Virus record (IMG/VR): IMGVR_UViG_3300037149_000105
Coordinates: 1-64,000 of that record
Source: a virus
DNA length: 64,000 bases
Direction: 5' to 3' (one strand)
Part shown: positions 49,720 to 56,755 of the stretch, piece after piece
How positions within the stretch are numbered: the stretch's first letter is position 1
Layout of the letters: each line of letters begins with the position of its first letter
Made by a program: the position numbers and the translations under genes
The notes under the pieces: generated by a model
Databases searched by the model: none
Seen by the model: only the letters and a program-made list of their open reading frames with translations
Told to the model about the DNA's origin: nothing

Positions 49720-49776
49720 AACTTCTCCTATACAAAACCCTAGTCAGTGCGATATACTGATTGTGGAGGAGAAAAC

Positions 49777-51927
49777 ATGAAACTGCAAGAAACCCAGAGT
49801 GCGGTGATGACTGGTGGGCTGGAAAATGCCCCTCATAAGTTCACCATTCAGGCAACGGCCAAGGCGTTTCAGATCCTGTCGAGTGGGCTCTACACCCACA
49901 AGATCAAGGCAGTGATCCGTGAACTGTCTTGCAATGCCTATGATGCCCACGTGGCGGTCGGATGTGTGGACAAGCCGTTCGACATTCATCTCCCTAACCA
50001 GTTTGAGCCCTTCTTCCGGGTCACCGACTATGGTCCTGGTTTGTCCGAAAAAGATATTTATGATATCTACGTCAGCTTTTTCACTTCCACAAAAATAGAA
50101 TCCAACGATTACATCGGTGCGCTGGGCTTGGGCTCGAAGTCCCCATTCTCCTACACCCAGACCTTCACCGTCACCAGCCGTTTTGACGGGATGAAGAAAA
50201 TCTACACCGCCTTCCTGACCGATGAGGGAATGCCCAGCATCGTCAAGATGTCGGAAGAGGCTTATGACGGTCCAACCGGTCTGGATGTCCAGGTGGCAGT
50301 CAAGTCCAACGACTTCTATACCTTCCAGACGGATGCGGCCATTACCTTCGTCTATTTCCCCGTCACCCCCAATTTCACCGGAGCCAAGGTCCGGATCGAG
50401 AAGCCAGTCTACTCAACCAAGGGGACCGGTTGGGCTATTCGTAAGGATGCCTACGGGGATGGTGGGGCCAGGGCCATCCAGGGAGTGGTCGCCTATCCGG
50501 TTCCCCACACGAACGATGCTCAGGCCGATGAGCTGCTTCGCTTGGGTGTGGATATGTTCTTCCAGATTGGTGAACTTGAAGTTTCGGCTTCCCGCGAGTC
50601 CCTGTCGATGAACAAAGCCACCTCCAAGAATCTGGCCGACCGGATCAAGATGGTCGCCACCGAAATTGGTGCGGAAGTCAGCAAGACCATCGCCAACGCT
50701 CCCACTCTGTGGGAAGCGGTCACGCTTTACAACGAACTGATGAAGAACAACTCCATCCGCTACGCCCTCAAAAACGTGGACATCATGTGGAATGGCCAGA
50801 AGGTTCCGGACTACATCGAAGTCAAGCCCCAGGACCACCCCACCCTGTCCCTGTATGCCTGTGAGAAGCGGGGTTATCGGCACGGTGTGAAGGAGACGAG
50901 CAACCAATTTGTCAAACCCCAGACTCATATTCTGATCCGGAACGACCTCACCAGGGGTTCCAAGGGTGTGCTGACCCGCTGGATCAAGCAGTTTGGCCAG
51001 GGTGGTCAAGGCACGGTCTGGTACCTGATCGGCCCTGGCTTCGGTCAGAAATTTGAAGCCGTGCAGGAAGACATCAATGAGTTCATTTCCAGTGTGTTGG
51101 GTGGACCGACTGAAATCAAACTCCTGAGCACGATGAAGGCCGAACTGCCTAAGATTGTTCGGACCGCCTCTGGCAAGCTCAAGAACTCTTTTCAGGTGTT
51201 CCAGATGACTGCTACGGCCTGGAAGGGCGCATGGGCTGAAGTGGACGAAGATGAAGACTTCAGTGGTGATCAATACTTCTACATCCGCACTTTCAAGAAC
51301 CAGCCCGGTCTCAAGGATGGCATGTCCTGCCCTGAAGACCACATTTCAGAGCCCCGCAGCCTGTATGGTCTCTGCAAGCTGATGGTTCAGTTGGGTCACA
51401 TGACTGCCGATGACCAAATCTTCAGCGGTAGCCCTCGCTTCATGGCCGAACTGAACCGGATGGACCCTGAGGAGCGGGAAAAATGGGTGGACCTGACCGA
51501 GGTGGCCATGAAGGCTTTGGCTTTCACTCCCACTGAACTGGAAGAACTGAAGCAAGCCACCACCGTCTCGTTCTACGATACCGGCCTGAAGACTCCTCGC
51601 CATAACCTGGAGGACACTCTTCAGTCGGTCGGCATCAACGATGACAATCGGACCATTCCGGCCATCGCTGACATCGAGAAAGCCTACAAGACTCACTTCA
51701 TCGCTGAAAAGATTGTTTCCTCCCATAAGGTTCGTCTCGAACTGGCCAGGGTGTTTGGCAAGAGCCCAATCAGTCAGAGCGGCAAGGCCATCGAGATGCC
51801 CAACCTCTCCAAAGCTACAGAGAAGTTTGGTCTTCTGGCCAGCGCCTTCACTCACTATGCTGAGTGGAGTCAGTTGAAGGAAGCGGTCAGTCTGATTGAA
51901 GCCCTGTTCCTTACCGAAAAAATCTGA
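49777..51927 (+). CDS. rIIA: rIIA-like protein with N-terminal GHKL ATPase fold
   Basis: ILSSGLY...AVIRELSCNAYDAH, DYGPGLS, GALGLGSKSPFSY, SASRESLS; adjacent to rIIB. Confidence 0.9.
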   Translation: MKLQETQSAVMTGGLENAPHKFTIQATAKAFQILSSGLYTHKIKAVIRELSCNAYDAHVAVGCVDKPFDIHLPNQFEPFFRVTDYGPGLSEKDIYDIYVSFFTSTKIESNDYIGALGLGSKSPFSYTQTFTVTSRFDGMKKIYTAFLTDEGMPSIVKMSEEAYDGPTGLDVQVAVKSNDFYTFQTDAAITFVYFPVTPNFTGAKVRIEKPVYSTKGTGWAIRKDAYGDGGARAIQGVVAYPVPHTNDAQADELLRLGVDMFFQIGELEVSASRESLSMNKATSKNLADRIKMVATEIGAEVSKTIANAPTLWEAVTLYNELMKNNSIRYALKNVDIMWNGQKVPDYIEVKPQDHPTLSLYACEKRGYRHGVKETSNQFVKPQTHILIRNDLTRGSKGVLTRWIKQFGQGGQGTVWYLIGPGFGQKFEAVQEDINEFISSVLGGPTEIKLLSTMKAELPKIVRTASGKLKNSFQVFQMTATAWKGAWAEVDEDEDFSGDQYFYIRTFKNQPGLKDGMSCPEDHISEPRSLYGLCKLMVQLGHMTADDQIFSGSPRFMAELNRMDPEEREKWVDLTEVAMKALAFTPTELEELKQATTVSFYDTGLKTPRHNLEDTLQSVGINDDNRTIPAIADIEKAYKTHFIAEKIVSSHKVRLELARVFGKSPISQSGKAIEMPNLSKATEKFGLLASAFTHYAEWSQLKEAVSLIEALFLTEKI

Positions 51928-51985: not shown

Positions 51986-53098
51986 ATGACCGCAGCACTC
52001 GCAAGCCCCAAGACCGGTGCTTTCATCATTGCCGGTGATTCCCTGGTCGTCGTGATCGGTGGGGTCAACTACACTATCAGCAAGACCAGTTGCCTTTACC
52101 AGCAAGTTAAGAACTGCGTGGTCCGTGGCAACTGGGAACTGGCGGCTTCCTACCTCGAACAGGCCGTCAATCTCAAGGGCGAGATTTGGTGGAACACTGA
52201 GGAGTTCATGGTCTACTACGGCCTGGAGCCCTTGCATCACAGTCTCGCTGACCGGCTCCCCCGGATGTTCGCTGAGGGGTTTGATACGACCCCCATGCTT
52301 AACTTCCTGAAGAATCTCTTTGCCAACCCGGCTGTTCATGCGATCAACGAACTCTATGAGTTCCTGGAGAAGAATGGGCTGCCCATCACCGAAGATGGCT
52401 GTTTCCTGGCCTACAAGAAGGTGCGGGAGGACTATCTGGACTGCTACAGCCAGAGCATCAGCAACAAGGTCGGTGAGAAGCCCAGCATGGATAGGGACAC
52501 CTGTGATCCTATCCGGACCAATCACTGCTCCACCGGCTACCATTTCTGCGGCCTGTCCTATCTGACTTGCTTCAATGGGGAGCGGGTGATGGTCGTGAAG
52601 ATCAACCCCAAGGATGTGACCTCCATCCCCAACGACTACAACTTCGCCAAGGGTCGCTGCTGCACCTACGAGGTGATTGACGAGTACGGCGGGACCGATG
52701 TCCAGCGGTACGAAGCTTTCTCCACCTCCGTGGCTCCGGGTGAGTTTGAGGAAGAGGAGTTCCAGGAAGGCGAGGATGAATTCTACTGCTCCGAATGTGG
52801 GGCTGAACACTCCGAGTGCTGCACCTGTGAACAGGATCAGGATGAAGCCGCTGGCCAGGAAGAGGTGGAGGAGCCCAACCTGTTCTCCGCTCCCAAAGAG
52901 ACGGACCTCTCTCCCATTCATAACCCCATCACCAAGGCTCGTGTGCTTCGGGGTCTGACCCAGGAACAGGTCGCTTCGGCCCTGGACATGCCCCTCCGGA
53001 TTTATGCGGAACGGGTTGAGGTTGAGGGTCGCCCTTTCAAGCCCTCTACTGTGGGTCGCATCCTCCAGGTCATCGAAACCCTGGCCGGGGAAGAGTAA
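51986..53098 (+). CDS. rIIB: rIIB-like protein with C-terminal Cys cluster and XRE-type HTH
   Basis: PITEDGCFLAYKKV, CSTGYHFC, VKINPKDVTSIPNDY...RCCTYEV; then ARVLRGLTQEQVASAL. Confidence 0.9.
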   Translation: MTAALASPKTGAFIIAGDSLVVVIGGVNYTISKTSCLYQQVKNCVVRGNWELAASYLEQAVNLKGEIWWNTEEFMVYYGLEPLHHSLADRLPRMFAEGFDTTPMLNFLKNLFANPAVHAINELYEFLEKNGLPITEDGCFLAYKKVREDYLDCYSQSISNKVGEKPSMDRDTCDPIRTNHCSTGYHFCGLSYLTCFNGERVMVVKINPKDVTSIPNDYNFAKGRCCTYEVIDEYGGTDVQRYEAFSTSVAPGEFEEEEFQEGEDEFYCSECGAEHSECCTCEQDQDEAAGQEEVEEPNLFSAPKETDLSPIHNPITKARVLRGLTQEQVASALDMPLRIYAERVEVEGRPFKPSTVGRILQVIETLAGEE

Positions 53099-53125
53099 GC
53101 GTCCCTCCTCCTAAGAAAGAGATGC

Positions 53126-53162
53126 GGGGGCCGGTAAATATCTGGTCCCCATTTTTCTTTTT
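53126..53162 (+). terminator. Intrinsic terminator after rIIB
   Basis: GGGGGCCGG/CTGGTCCCC stem followed by ATTTTTCTTTTT. Confidence 0.8.
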
Positions 53163-53243
53163 GTCTCCCCCATGGGTGAGTGGATTGAAACTGTTATGGT
53201 TAGACAAGTCTCAGAAGCATCACCCTTCTGAGTGGATTGAAAC
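53163..53243 (+). CRISPR. Mini-array of two type I-C-like repeats around a 16-nt spacer
   Basis: GTCTCCCCCATGGGTGAGTGGATTGAAAC (53163-53191), TGTTATGGTTAGACAA, GTCTCAGAAGCATCACCCTTCTGAGTGGATTGAAAC (53208-53243). Confidence 0.75.
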
Positions 53244-53259
53244 TAAGAAAGAGGCTGCT

Positions 53260-53451
53260 TTGCTCATACCACTTCCTCACCACAGTTTAAATCGTGAAAC
53301 TTCCGAACGTCTCCTTAAGCTCAGGGCATTGCTGCTCAAGATCCTTCAGGAGGCCCCCGATTCAGTTAGAGAAGAGGTATCCGAAAAGGCCCTCGCCATT
53401 TATTCCGCAATTCAGCAAGAAATTTTCAAGGAGCAATCAAATGGAACGTAA
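53260..53451 (+). CDS. Small helical protein (63 aa) directly after repeat 2
   Basis: GAGG RBS then TTG at 53260, in frame with track ORF 53122-53451; overlaps the ligase start. Confidence 0.55.
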   Translation: MLIPLPHHSLNRETSERLLKLRALLLKILQEAPDSVREEVSEKALAIYSAIQQEIFKEQSNGT

Positions 53452-54517
53452 ACTGGCTAGTATCCAACGCATCCTCGCTCTGGACCCCATCGAAGGGGCC
53501 GATAGGATTGAGGTGGCCACCATTCAGGGATGGAAGGTGGTAGTGCAGAAAGGACTCCACAAAGTAAGCGATCTCGTGGCATATTTCGAGATAGATTCAT
53601 GGGTGCCGACTGAAGTTGCCCCTTTTCTCACCAAGGTTGGACAGGAACCTCGTGAATACGAAGGGGTTCGGGGTGAACGACTCCGCACGGTAAAACTGAA
53701 GGGGCAGGTATCTCAAGGGATTATTCTTCCCCTCAGCGATTTTGCAAATCTTCCTCTCCCTCCCTACGATTTTCTCATGGGAAAATGGAATCAGGAGGGA
53801 CTGGACATCACCGAGCAACTGGGCGTCATCAAATATGAACCCCCAATCCCTGCTTGCCTCGCCGGTCAGGTCAAAGGTATGTTCCCCAGCTTCATCCGCA
53901 AGACCGATCAGGAACGAATCCAGACCCTTCCCGAGTTCTTCGAGGAATATAAGGATATGGGCTTCGAAGTCACGATCAAACTTGATGGTTCGAGCATGAC
54001 CGTCTACCACCGGAATGGAGATACCGGAGTTTGCAGCCATAATCTAGATCTCAAAGAGGACCAGAACAACTCCTTCTGGAAGATTGTCAACCGTCTGAAC
54101 CTTGTTGAACTCCTGAATCACCTGGGACTCAACGTAGCTATCCAAGGGGAATTGATTGGAGAGGGAATCCAAGGAAATCATGAGAAACTCAAGGGTCAGG
54201 AACTCTTTGTCTTCGATATTTGGGACATTGATGCCCACCGCTACATGACCCGCCAGGAGCGTCAGGATGTCCTCCAGGCTCTCGAAGCTCTCCTCCCCAA
54301 GGGGGAGCACATCTATTCCGTCCCTGTCGTCCACGAGGACATGAAGGTCTTCCAGACCTACCCAACAATGGAAACCATCCTCGTCTTTGCTGGAGCAGGC
54401 CCAAGTCTCAACGCTCAGATTAGAGAGGGGCTGGTTTTTAAATCCACCTCTCTGGTTAACGGCGAAACGGTAAGTTTTAAAGTTATAAATAATAAATATC
54501 TCCTGAAAGAAAAATAA
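53441..54517 (+). CDS. ATP-dependent RNA ligase, DRB0094/Rnl5-like family
   Basis: MERKLASIQ...IEGADRIE, YFEIDS, FPSFIRKTDQERIQ, KLDGSSMT (motif I), QGELIG, REGLVFK, SFKVIN; start ATG 53441 after AGGAG. Confidence 0.92.
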   Translation: MERKLASIQRILALDPIEGADRIEVATIQGWKVVVQKGLHKVSDLVAYFEIDSWVPTEVAPFLTKVGQEPREYEGVRGERLRTVKLKGQVSQGIILPLSDFANLPLPPYDFLMGKWNQEGLDITEQLGVIKYEPPIPACLAGQVKGMFPSFIRKTDQERIQTLPEFFEEYKDMGFEVTIKLDGSSMTVYHRNGDTGVCSHNLDLKEDQNNSFWKIVNRLNLVELLNHLGLNVAIQGELIGEGIQGNHEKLKGQELFVFDIWDIDAHRYMTRQERQDVLQALEALLPKGEHIYSVPVVHEDMKVFQTYPTMETILVFAGAGPSLNAQIREGLVFKSTSLVNGETVSFKVINNKYLLKEK

Positions 54518-54538
54518 ATATCAAACACTCCTACAAAG

Positions 54539-54567
54539 GTCTCTCCCACGGGAGAGTGGATTGAAAC
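54539..54567 (+). CRISPR. Solitary type I-C-like repeat
   Basis: GTCTCTCCCACGGGAGAGTGGATTGAAAC; stem CTCTCC/GGAGAG and the same 11-nt handle. Confidence 0.75.
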
Positions 54568-54584
54568 AAACCAAAGGTGCAGCC

Positions 54585-55142
54585 ATGACGAGTGGTAGTA
54601 AAAAATTTCACAAGAAGGCACTGGGGGATCAGGTGATCGCCGTCGATATGCACTTTATGCCAATGATGGCAGTTAGTCGTCGTCATGCTCTCAAGGCTCT
54701 GGCCACTGAGAGGGCTGAAGCTCTAGATCTGGAGACCTGGACTCGCAAGGCTCTCTATGAGATCACCGACATCCACGATTTTGCCTGTATTCTCTATCCA
54801 GGTGTGCAAGCGATCAAGGATACGAAGCTGAAACTCGGAAAGGGTTACAGGGGCATCCTTGAACGGGATGAGCACATCTGCCAGTACTGTGGTAAGAAGG
54901 CCAATACTGTTGACCATGTGATGCCCAAGTCAAGAGGTGGGGGCTCTGCTCCTAACAACCTTGTAGCTGCCTGCCTCGCTTGCAATCAAAAGAAGGCTGA
55001 TCGAACTCCAACAGAGGCCGGAATGCCTTTAATTCACGCGATTCATGCAACCCGGTGGAAACTGATGGAGCAGTTCCATGAACTGACCGTTAGCTGGTCA
55101 TATCGCAGAAAGAAGATGGACGAAGATGTCAAGATTGCCTAA
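54585..55142 (+). CDS. McrA-like HNH endonuclease with N-terminal V...D..F.PM..VS..RA-type domain
   Basis: RDEHICQYCG...TVDHVMPKSRGG....NLVAAC..CNQKK..RTP.EAGM; likely ATG 54585. Confidence 0.88.
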   Translation: MTSGSKKFHKKALGDQVIAVDMHFMPMMAVSRRHALKALATERAEALDLETWTRKALYEITDIHDFACILYPGVQAIKDTKLKLGKGYRGILERDEHICQYCGKKANTVDHVMPKSRGGGSAPNNLVAACLACNQKKADRTPTEAGMPLIHAIHATRWKLMEQFHELTVSWSYRRKKMDEDVKIA

Positions 55143-55635
55143 CTTTACTGCCTCCCTGCTTCATCATATAGCCTATGGGCTAGATATTGGCGGGGAGGTT
55201 CATGATTTTGAACCACAAAATGCCAAAGATCTCCGCTATCGGAACAGCCCCGATGGCGGATTTAACGGTGGGAGCCCCAATCCACAGCAGTATACGCAGG
55301 GGCCAGAGGCCCAAACCCTCCCCCCTGATGCTCCGTTGTATCATGGCACTACCTTGAATGATTGGAATGAGGGTGGGGCCACCAAACTTAGAGTTTCCAC
55401 CAATATTGAAGAGGCAAAAGCTGATGCAAAAACCGCTGCTGAAGGTGAAAATGCCCCAATTGTGGTTATGATCAAGTTTGGAGACCTGGGTGAGTATGAA
55501 TTGGAGCCTGATTCAACCCATTCGGAGGTTCATGAAGGGGTCTCCTGGCAGGAGTGCCTGAAGGATACAGGGGTATTTTGTATCGTCGGAGACATTGACT
55601 CCTTGAAACCCAATTTTAAACTGGTCAACGGTTGA
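55126..55635 (+). CDS. Hypothetical protein with possible ADP-ribosyltransferase-like fold
   Basis: LYHGT...VSTNIEEA...A...PIVVMI; the stop codon is supplied by the tnpB right end. Confidence 0.5.
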   Translation: MSRLPNFTASLLHHIAYGLDIGGEVHDFEPQNAKDLRYRNSPDGGFNGGSPNPQQYTQGPEAQTLPPDAPLYHGTTLNDWNEGGATKLRVSTNIEEAKADAKTAAEGENAPIVVMIKFGDLGEYELEPDSTHSEVHEGVSWQECLKDTGVFCIVGDIDSLKPNFKLVNG

Positions 55636-56755
55636 CATCCTCCCCTCCCTAAACGGAGGGGATTCCTAGCCGTAGAGTCTGATGTCCCAGACCGAGACGG
55701 AGTATATTTTGAGCAGCGTTTACATCTCTATTATGAGACGCTCCGCATTCAGAGCATACCCAATCTCTTACCGACAGCCCACTTAGTCCTTTCGGGCCGG
55801 TGAGGGCGGCACAGCCGCCACACCGCTGGGTTGTCCAAGCTTCATTAACGATTCGGACTACCTTGCCAAGCTTAATAGCTTTATAAGACAAGAAGTTCAG
55901 AACCATACTGATACCCGCATCCAAGGTAGATTTGCAAGCTTTCAAATGTAAATCCCCAACTATGATTAAATCATAGGAATTAATCAGATTTGTGGTCAAT
56001 TTGTGCAAATAATCTTTGCGTTGATTTTTGATTCGGGCGTGAATAGATTTTGTTTGATTCTTATGTTTAGCTCTCTGAGCGGTTGCAAGCCTAGCTTGCG
56101 ATTTGTAATAAAACTTTTCATTAGAATAACTGATCGAATCAGAGCTAGTCGCTATGGATTTCAAACCTAAATCAACTCCTACTTGAGTTTTAAACTCTAC
56201 CAGTTGGGAGACTTTCCCAATCTCAACTTGCAAGTTTATGAACCAATTCCCCTTGGAATCCTGATTAAAACTACCAGTCCTGATATCAGCTTCGCTGAGA
56301 TTAATGGCGTTATAATGAGAATCGAAGAATTTAAACTTATGTTTACAATAGATGAACAAGTTATTTTTAAATCTCAAGGCGGAAGCTTTGAATGGTATCC
56401 ACCCGAGAACGCATTTATAGCTCCGCCAGCGAAGCTTTTGTTTCTTGAATTGTTTGCGCCTAGTAATATATTCTTTACATATGGATTGGACGGTTGTAGA
56501 GTTCAAACCCAATTCGCCCGCACAGCCAGCCGTCTGGTTGTCAAGTTCATACTCGCTGGCCCATTTCGAATACTTCTTGAGTTGGTTATAACTCTGTTCA
56601 TTACAATAGTTCCATACCAGATTGACCGCAGAACTCATCCGAATCAAGATTTTTCTTGAAACGGAGTCCTTGAGTCTGTAATGGAGAGTAATAATCATGT
56701 GTGTATCTATTTAATACTCAGAAAGTTTGATTTTGCTCATGGCACAAAGTATCCG
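55632..56755 (-). mobile_element. Non-autonomous IS200/IS605-family element (tnpB only)
   Basis: Right end GAATCCCCTCCGTTTAGGGAGGGGAGGATGTCAA is clear; left limit inferred from TTAC at 56756-56759(-) and is less certain; no tnpA. Confidence 0.65.
55649..56698 (-). CDS. tnpB: RNA-guided endonuclease TnpB
   Basis: VNLVWNYC, VGVDLGLK, RKDYLHKLTT, CGGC/CSEC zinc finger, HNRDVNAAQNIL. Confidence 0.95.
   Translation of the reverse strand: MIITLHYRLKDSVSRKILIRMSSAVNLVWNYCNEQSYNQLKKYSKWASEYELDNQTAGCAGELGLNSTTVQSICKEYITRRKQFKKQKLRWRSYKCVLGWIPFKASALRFKNNLFIYCKHKFKFFDSHYNAINLSEADIRTGSFNQDSKGNWFINLQVEIGKVSQLVEFKTQVGVDLGLKSIATSSDSISYSNEKFYYKSQARLATAQRAKHKNQTKSIHARIKNQRKDYLHKLTTNLINSYDLIIVGDLHLKACKSTLDAGISMVLNFLSYKAIKLGKVVRIVNEAWTTQRCGGCAALTGPKGLSGLSVRDWVCSECGASHNRDVNAAQNILRLGLGHQTLRLGIPSV

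Follow-up and report, generated by a model that had tools for sequence, protein, structure and literature searches.

Two units that resemble the repeats of type I-C CRISPR arrays lie 16 nt apart behind the rIIB-like gene of an uncultured phage, and the question raised by this locus is what an RNA made from them would do: occupy the Cas proteins of the host, guide them to a target, or serve no present function. An earlier note on this DNA had proposed that cutting of both repeats would release a 52-nt crRNA mimic, a candidate RNA anti-CRISPR or regulatory guide. The locus was analysed in a window of 64 kb, which is the first 64 kb of a phage record of 147,410 bp rated 51% complete by CheckV. 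From the size of the record and its completeness of 51%, the source virus is a jumbo phage, and its sequence recurs in many peat and permafrost metagenomes. The features of the locus, including four repeat units (R1 to R4), are listed here in window coordinates, except for R4.

49747-51927: rIIA gene, upstream of rIIB (PHROGs RIIA, E = 5e-121)
51986-53098, plus strand: rIIB-like gene (PHROGs RIIB, E = 1e-55; Pfam Phage_T4_rIIB on the same gene in relatives)
53126-53160, plus strand: intrinsic terminator of rIIB, found by terminator scan (hairpin 53126-53150 and an interrupted T run)
53163-53191, plus strand: R1, the first mimic of a type I-C repeat, 29 nt long, whose hairpin is weak and bulged (33.8 bits over its full length under the covariance model)
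53181-53232, plus strand: predicted 52-nt product of cuts by a Cas5c-type enzyme at the 3' stem base of both repeats
53192-53207, plus strand: 16-nt inter-repeat segment TGTTATGGTTAGACAA between R1 and R2
53208-53243, plus strand: R2, the second mimic of a type I-C repeat, 36 nt long, in which an 8-bp stem carries a 7-nt loop (27.8 bits)
53260-53451, plus strand: 63-aa ORF that begins with TTG 16 nt downstream of R2 and has a ribosome-binding site (RBS) at 53247-53254, overlapping the start of the RNA ligase gene
53441-54517, plus strand: RNA ligase (Pfam RNA_ligase and PHA02142 OB domain)
54539-54567, plus strand: R3, a solitary mimic of the I-C repeat, 17 nt ahead of the start of the HNH endonuclease gene (40.3 bits)
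54585: start of the HNH endonuclease gene, 17 nt after R3
94893-94924 of the genome record, plus strand: R4 (33.5 bits, full length)

In T4-type phages, rIIA and rIIB form an early operon. The rIIB terminator (predicted fold of -17.8 kcal/mol, z -3.4) adjoins R1 on the upstream side and is kept in all relatives; a weakened terminator in this phage was considered and set aside, the difference (-17.8 here vs -20.3 kcal/mol in relatives) being slight and not decisive. On the 3' side of R1-R2, the gene order is the 63-aa ORF, the RNA ligase, R3, the HNH endonuclease and a TnpB element. The 63-aa ORF, which gave no family match in the family searches, is restricted to the phage clade and is present also in relatives without R1-R2. 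A 109-aa reading frame (53122-53451) that spans the terminator and the whole of R1-R2 with the 16 nt was rejected as an artefact: in relatives a stop codon interrupts it, and what is left there is an ORF of 63-66 aa, corresponding to the last 63-66 codons of this reading. The public gene calls include the 109-aa protein (P0001), on 22 contigs. The end of the TnpB element (window 55631-55668) is 92-95% identical over 37-38 nt to two sites in one Acidobacteriaceae genome (G116); this match is a shared IS-end or omega-RNA motif and is too short for naming a host.

The resemblance of the units to type I-C repeats was assessed with a covariance model that had as its only input 19 distinct repeats, taken from genuine I-C arrays of different taxa; the stems of these repeats covary strongly (96% of cells paired; none of 500 shuffles reaches the observed score). 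In the window, the model recovers R1 (E = 6e-7), R2 (E = 3e-5) and R3, all at full length, and the next-best match scores 11.5 bits; in the rest of the genome R4 is the sole match, nothing else exceeding 12 bits in 147 kb. The resemblance of R1 and R2 to I-C repeats is beyond chance. The 12-mer GTGGATTGAAAC occurs in four copies in the 147,410-bp record, all on the plus strand, with about 0.02 expected. Both R1 and R2 have GTCTC at the 5' end and GAGTGGATTGAAAC at the 3' end, and they carry the features that define the repeat class, namely the TGGATTGAAAC 3' end that forms the 11-nt handle and a stem-loop ending at the cleavage site. GTCTC and the last 14 nt are common to the units and to arrays from many phyla. 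Rfam families gave no match at the gathering score in the window, and none at E up to 1 in 53100-54650.

Cas5d/Cas5c cuts the I-C repeat at the base of the stem and leaves an 11-nt 5' handle, and its recognition of the repeat requires the hairpin base together with the single-stranded handle. In the predicted folds, the hairpin of each unit sits in the canonical register and leaves an 11-nt single-stranded tail; we take the last 11 nt of each unit to be the type I-C crRNA 5' handle and the end of the hairpin to be the cleavage point of Cas5c. R2 folds into 8 bp (-9.5 kcal/mol), with an in-register stem at p = 0.0015 against shuffles. R1, the weakest of the four units, forms 6 bp with a bulge (-5.9 kcal/mol), an energy no better than that of shuffles. 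All four fold in the same register, and their inner stems differ in sequence and length yet pair, whereas the 14-nt 3' end, including the handle, is invariant across R1-R4. The part of the units that is held constant is exactly the part that Cas5c is known to read. As the earlier note had calculated, with correct coordinates and arithmetic, cuts at both stem bases would release an RNA of 52 nt, made up of the 11-nt handle, the 16-nt segment and 25 nt of hairpin. The units lie on the coding strand of the neighbouring genes, and a start codon follows the end of R2, R3 and R4 after 16, 17 and 15 nt, respectively, an RBS lying in the interval.

An 11-nt direct repeat, CTAAGAAAGAG, is found at window positions 53112-53122 and 53243-53253. 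The copy after the rIIB stop codon is ancestral, being found in relatives; the other starts at the last base of R2, in the RBS region of the 63-aa ORF, and may be the mark of a recombination that placed R2 or a mere RBS-like sequence.

Sister phages with kept flanks show three states of the spacer between rIIB and the RNA ligase gene. In the first (L022, L031, L032 and L223-L229) there is no repeat, and the terminator is followed by a sigma-70 promoter, TAGACA-N18-TATAAT. In the second (L221-L222 and L230-L235) one repeat is located between the rIIB stop codon and the terminator, and the promoter is intact; the RNA, which rides on the rIIB mRNA, would have the layout of a repeat, about 10 nt and then the terminator hairpin. 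The third state, R1-16 nt-R2, is that of this phage and of L214-L220, where it stands after the terminator in place of the promoter. The R1-R2 sequence is identical in these seven further assemblies, which come from other samples, and also in a variant strain. The single unit of the second state, for example at L230:1312-1385 (also in L221, L222 and L231-L235), is an I-C mimic that ends in GAAAT.

Other sites vary in a similar way. At the R3 site there is no unit in L221-L223 and L230-L235; one is present here and in L022/L031, where the R3 ortholog has a different stem and flanks and keeps its ends and its pairing. A unit of 42 nt is present in the relative G001 and cleanly absent from this genome (at about 84468), in flanks that are 99% identical, and G001 has a further unit at a rearranged site. 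Because the three spacer states, the R3 site and the G001 sites differ among sisters, the units are to be seen as accessories with a rapid turnover rather than as fixed expression signals of genes. The 42-nt unit (L194:1469-1512) lies 33 nt before an ATG, directly after an AGAC...CAGCAA...GTCTAG element; such elements also precede R4 and another G001 unit (L017:1417-1444).

At the filled R3 site of one sister (L022:4990-5051; the same in L031), the 35 nt after the repeat match the unit-free sites L221:1709-1773 and L223:2747-2811 at 33-34 of 35 positions. In L221 and L223 the I-C PAM, TTC, stands immediately before this stretch, and the carrier L022 has the AAC of the repeat there. The unit of L022/L031 thus has the layout of a one-repeat guide against siblings, into which R3 of this phage does not fit; TTC was found at only 1 of about 5 insertion sites examined (chance about 0.08). 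A corresponding reading of R1/R2 as a homing guide was rejected, as the empty sites have no TTC and show seed mismatches.

Units of this kind are also found in other phages. In the huge phages G004 (279 kb) and G005 (485 kb) there are 3-7 mimics of the I-C repeat each, at dispersed sites (loci L187-L203), and some of them end 0-4 nt before an ATG; in G005, two are 105 nt apart, and a GTGGCTTGAAAC variant is also present. Neither G004 nor G005 gave a Cas5d or Cas7 match. A separate 36-kb viral contig carries a two-spacer I-C mini-array (L011:1498-1610, minus strand) with a promoter, two non-identical repeats, a 35-nt spacer, a second spacer related to the first and a terminator, and the array resembles a Cracr array.

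As far as sampled, the units stand in a cas-free context: no Cas5d or Cas7 family match was found in the 147-kb record, which is 51% complete, in the relative G001, or in two further huge phages with repeat units and a completeness of 92-95%. Some huge phages encode CRISPR-Cas, and the 51% estimate would leave an unsampled genome half for cas genes or a real array with which the units work, a very improbable reading given these searches and units that are dispersed with differing stems, unlike an array.

The explanation that we favour, and to which we give about an even chance of being right, is that R1-R2 specify a decoy RNA of the Racr type for the Cas5c and Cas7 proteins of the host. R1 and R2 would be adjacent RNA mimics of the host type I-C repeat, part of a set of four, and the units would be transcribed together with the early rIIA-rIIB and RNA-ligase region. 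The host Cas5c would recognise them, and they would draw Cas5c and Cas7 into dead-end particles, so that fewer Cascade complexes target the phage, as in the Racr mechanism. If both repeats were cut, the result would be the 52-nt RNA, a stunted crRNA with room for only a few Cas7 subunits, and the 16 nt would be a linker, possibly left from the replaced promoter, and not an address. The sequences show the mimicry, the pattern of selection on it, the accessory behaviour of the units and, as far as sampled, the cas-free context, whereas transcription, cutting, Cas binding and inhibition are inferred.

Several observations argue for such a decoy. The units match at full length a model derived from genuine arrays only, and their differing inner stems all pair around an invariant handle, in the same way as real arrays covary. 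RacrIC1, which has been validated experimentally, sits 11 nt after acrIC5 on one RNA (PMC10651486); the one-repeat sister state, with its order of repeat, tail and terminator after rIIB, is a comparable arrangement. The gain and loss of units among sisters, the lack of Cas5d/Cas7 matches in this record and in the two huge phages of 92-95% completeness, and the identity of R1-R2 in the seven further assemblies and the variant strain also speak for it. An RNA-library contig across the locus points weakly in the same direction. On the other side stand the R1 hairpin, which is no better than shuffled sequence, and the terminator ahead of R1 with no predicted promoter. A pure decoy has no need of a start codon close behind it, as is found 15-17 nt after three of the four units, and with a record that is 51% complete, the phage could have cas genes elsewhere. 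The model also presumes a host with a I-C system whose repeat R1-R2 would imitate. In addition, R1 and R2 lie within 100 bp of each other and form a mini-array rather than a solitary unit in terms of the SRUFinder rule, by which a repeat is solitary when there is no other full or partial repeat within 100 bp (PMC10651486). With 16 nt between them, R1 and R2 fall outside this definition, whereas R3 and R4 come within it, and the unit of L230 is a proper solitary unit.

The route by which the locus would be transcribed bears directly on the decoy. No sigma-70 promoter was predicted in 53150-53260. Given the lack of a predicted promoter ahead of R1 and the terminator that immediately precedes it, the RNA must come from read-through or start inside the 16 nt; production of the 52-nt RNA would need read-through of the rIIB terminator or a promoter upstream of R1. 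A start inside the 16 nt would be the alternative to read-through: the segment contains TGTTATGGT, which resembles an extended -10 element and ends 7 nt short of R2; in other phages, units that clearly consist of a promoter and a repeat (L010, L015 and L016) have the -10 at 6 nt. With such a start, the main transcript would not include R1, and the 52-nt RNA would make up a minor share. One RNA-library contig spans 53100-53280 uncut, which fits read-through and also DNA carry-over; the metatranscriptome contigs give patchy cover with no read ends, and gaps in this cover mean nothing. The 16 nt also contain TAGACA, the -35 hexamer of the promoter found at this place in relatives, which hints that part of the segment is a remnant of the replaced promoter. 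The 16 nt may thus be only a linker or a promoter remnant.

An origin with no present function, as leftovers of recombination between the phage and a host array (spacer with protospacer) or as hitch-hiking fragments, has to be weighed against the decoy. It would agree with units that come and go between close relatives, with the poor R1 hairpin and with a spacer that is truncated in comparison with arrays; moreover, the L022/L031 unit lies exactly at a TTC-flanked site, as expected from capture mediated by a matching spacer. We nevertheless consider neutral scars unlikely, as the 14-nt 3' end is invariant and the differing stems still pair, in the four units and in orthologs with diverged flanks, all units are on the coding strand of their neighbours, and R1-R2 is unchanged across many samples.

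The position of R2, R3 and R4 shortly before start codons, with an RBS between, raises the possibility of a role in cis, in which the repeats would be processing or stability elements of phage mRNAs, either cut by the host Cas5c or bound by an unnamed phage protein, and would set the 5' ends of the ORF63/RNA-ligase, HNH and DUF2828 messages. The R1-R2 insert took the place of the operon promoter, so the downstream genes would be read from a longer transcript, and the units that end 0-4 nt before an ATG in other huge phages point the same way. However, sister phages have the same genes and the same RBS without any unit, the unit of the one-repeat lineage is in the rIIB 3' UTR before the terminator and not in a leader, and any insert lands near a start codon, phage intergenic regions being short. 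A cis-acting leader is therefore rather improbable in our judgement.

A regulatory guide of the Cracr or CreR-CreA type, which was the other half of the earlier proposal, would load the 52-nt RNA onto the host Cascade, where a short PAM-proximal match would let the complex sit on a host promoter without Cas3 cutting; the targets would be the promoters of the cas operon or of a CRISPR-guarding toxin. The arrangement of repeat, short spacer and repeat is that of viral crRNA-like regulators. According to Liu et al. (bioRxiv 10.1101/2024.10.29.618823), viral regulators have shorter spacers than bacterial ones (median 19 vs 25 nt in I-F) and I-C examples exist, and viral mini-arrays aimed at cas promoters have been described (PMC10120712). 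Normal spacers are indeed about twice as long as the 16 nt, as had been noted: 949 spacers of this repeat class span 25-52 nt with a mode of 34-35, and the segment is shorter than any of them. No other mini-array of this repeat class with a short spacer was found in IMG/VR, and the clear viral I-C mini-array at L011 differs in having its own promoter, 35-nt spacers and a terminator. The closest sister lineages do without the two-repeat unit and have the sigma-70 promoter instead.

The 16-mer was also searched for directly. The earlier observation that it has no second copy in the window was confirmed, the only other match having 3 mismatches, which is at chance level. There was no target, with or without a TTC PAM, in the genome record of the phage itself, and none in 1.29 Mb of fetched loci that include relatives and I-C arrays; in the fetched loci of relatives there was no match at up to 2 mismatches. 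In these loci, too, no array spacer matches the phage. The search of candidate hosts that had been suggested gave nothing, with the 16-mer behind a 5' TTC or without it, in 405 Acidobacteriota genomes, 4 Acidobacteria genomes being searched at up to 3 mismatches and 401 Acidobacteriota genomes at up to 1; this host group is a guess from the habitat and from one Acidobacteriaceae I-C array (L176), and these negatives are not evidence of absence. A comparison of 20 kb of the window with 301 Acidobacteriaceae genomes returned only the 37-nt match at the TnpB end, which is not host evidence. The candidate RNA anti-CRISPR thus stands in so far as the units are real I-C mimics with a conserved handle and stem base, varying inner stems and no Cas5d/Cas7 in the record, and the use of the 16 nt as a guide that silences a host promoter is not supported: with no target found in the sequences searched, a segment shorter than the spacers of its class and its absence from the closest sisters, we regard such a guide as improbable.

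A bolder variant is that the 52-nt RNA is a working minimal crRNA, cut by Cas5c, with which a shortened I-C Cascade would bind a TTC-flanked site in a peat host or a competing phage without Cas3 cutting. The I-C units of the clade would then be small cassettes that insert repeatedly into early-gene spacers, an idea suggested by the three different states at one spacer. In that case the 52-nt RNA would be shorter than any other type I guide found in nature; we think this variant distinctly improbable.

It remains to place R1-R2, read as a putative decoy, among known systems. Genuine I-C arrays, such as those of Methylomonas, Anaerolineales, Marinacidobacterales and Myxococcota MAGs, are like R1-R2 in the 5' pentamer, the position of the stem and the 14-nt 3' end, and R3 differs from the 33-nt array repeat of Methylomonas and Chloroflexi essentially in the loop only. 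R1-R2, in contrast, has two copies only, which are non-identical with differing stems, an interval of 16 nt instead of 32-37 nt, no leader, no cas genes nearby and no Cas5d/Cas7 in the record, and is not an array of this type.

Cracr RNAs are described by Liu et al. (bioRxiv 10.1101/2024.10.29.618823) as viral crRNA-like regulators copied from the host CreR/CreA, with a spacer that matches at least 9 PAM-proximal nt of the host CreR/CreA target, a cas or creT promoter. R1-R2 has their layout, in which a degenerate repeat and a short spacer are followed by a second repeat or a terminator on a phage or plasmid, and it shares with viral regulatory mini-arrays (Shmakov et al., PMC10120712) the degenerate repeat, short spacer and repeat; the repeats are non-identical, as in L011. 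Its spacer, at 16 nt, is shorter than those of the I-F regulators (median 19) and of L011 (about 30-35), and the match to a cas or creT promoter by which a Cracr is defined was not found in the phage record, the fetched loci and the 405 Acidobacteriota genomes searched. According to PMC10651486 and PMC10120712, the mini-CRISPR arrays that viruses carry against their competitors (Medvedeva et al. 2019) are also of the form repeat-spacer-repeat in a virus that relies on host Cas. Their spacers are full-length and match related viruses, whereas the spacer of R1-R2 is of half length and has no PAM-adjacent match in the fetched loci of relatives.

The closest likeness is to the Racrs (Camara-Wilpert et al. 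2023, PMC10651486), whose known theme of solitary repeats and RNA anti-CRISPRs R1-R2 fits. Common to both are a phage-borne copy of an I-C repeat on an element without cas genes (here a virus record 51% complete and without Cas5d/Cas7 matches) and an intergenic position. Racrs are transcribed, typically from a promoter close upstream or as part of an operon, in hosts with the matching CRISPR-Cas subtype, and their RNA binds Cas proteins and inhibits interference; for R1-R2, co-transcription with neighbours is a prediction. The L230 unit of the one-repeat state has the classical Racr layout of a repeat, a short tail and a terminator. R1-R2 departs from it in its two units 16 nt apart, in the four units per genome with deliberately different stems, in having no promoter predicted right upstream and no known acr gene adjoining, and in an activity that is putative. 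Were it active, RNA anti-CRISPRs would extend to uncultured jumbo phages of peat and permafrost, in which several I-C mimics per genome come and go among close relatives. With its states of no repeat, one before the terminator and two replacing the promoter, the locus forms a natural series that offers a ready comparison of what a repeat mimic requires, and bears on whether a 16-nt 'spacer' improves a decoy by trapping Cas5c and a few Cas7. R1-R2 is a further example of a known trick rather than a new principle, as Racr and Cracr RNAs already cover both readings; what is unusual in it is the very short distance between the repeats and the natural variation at a single locus.
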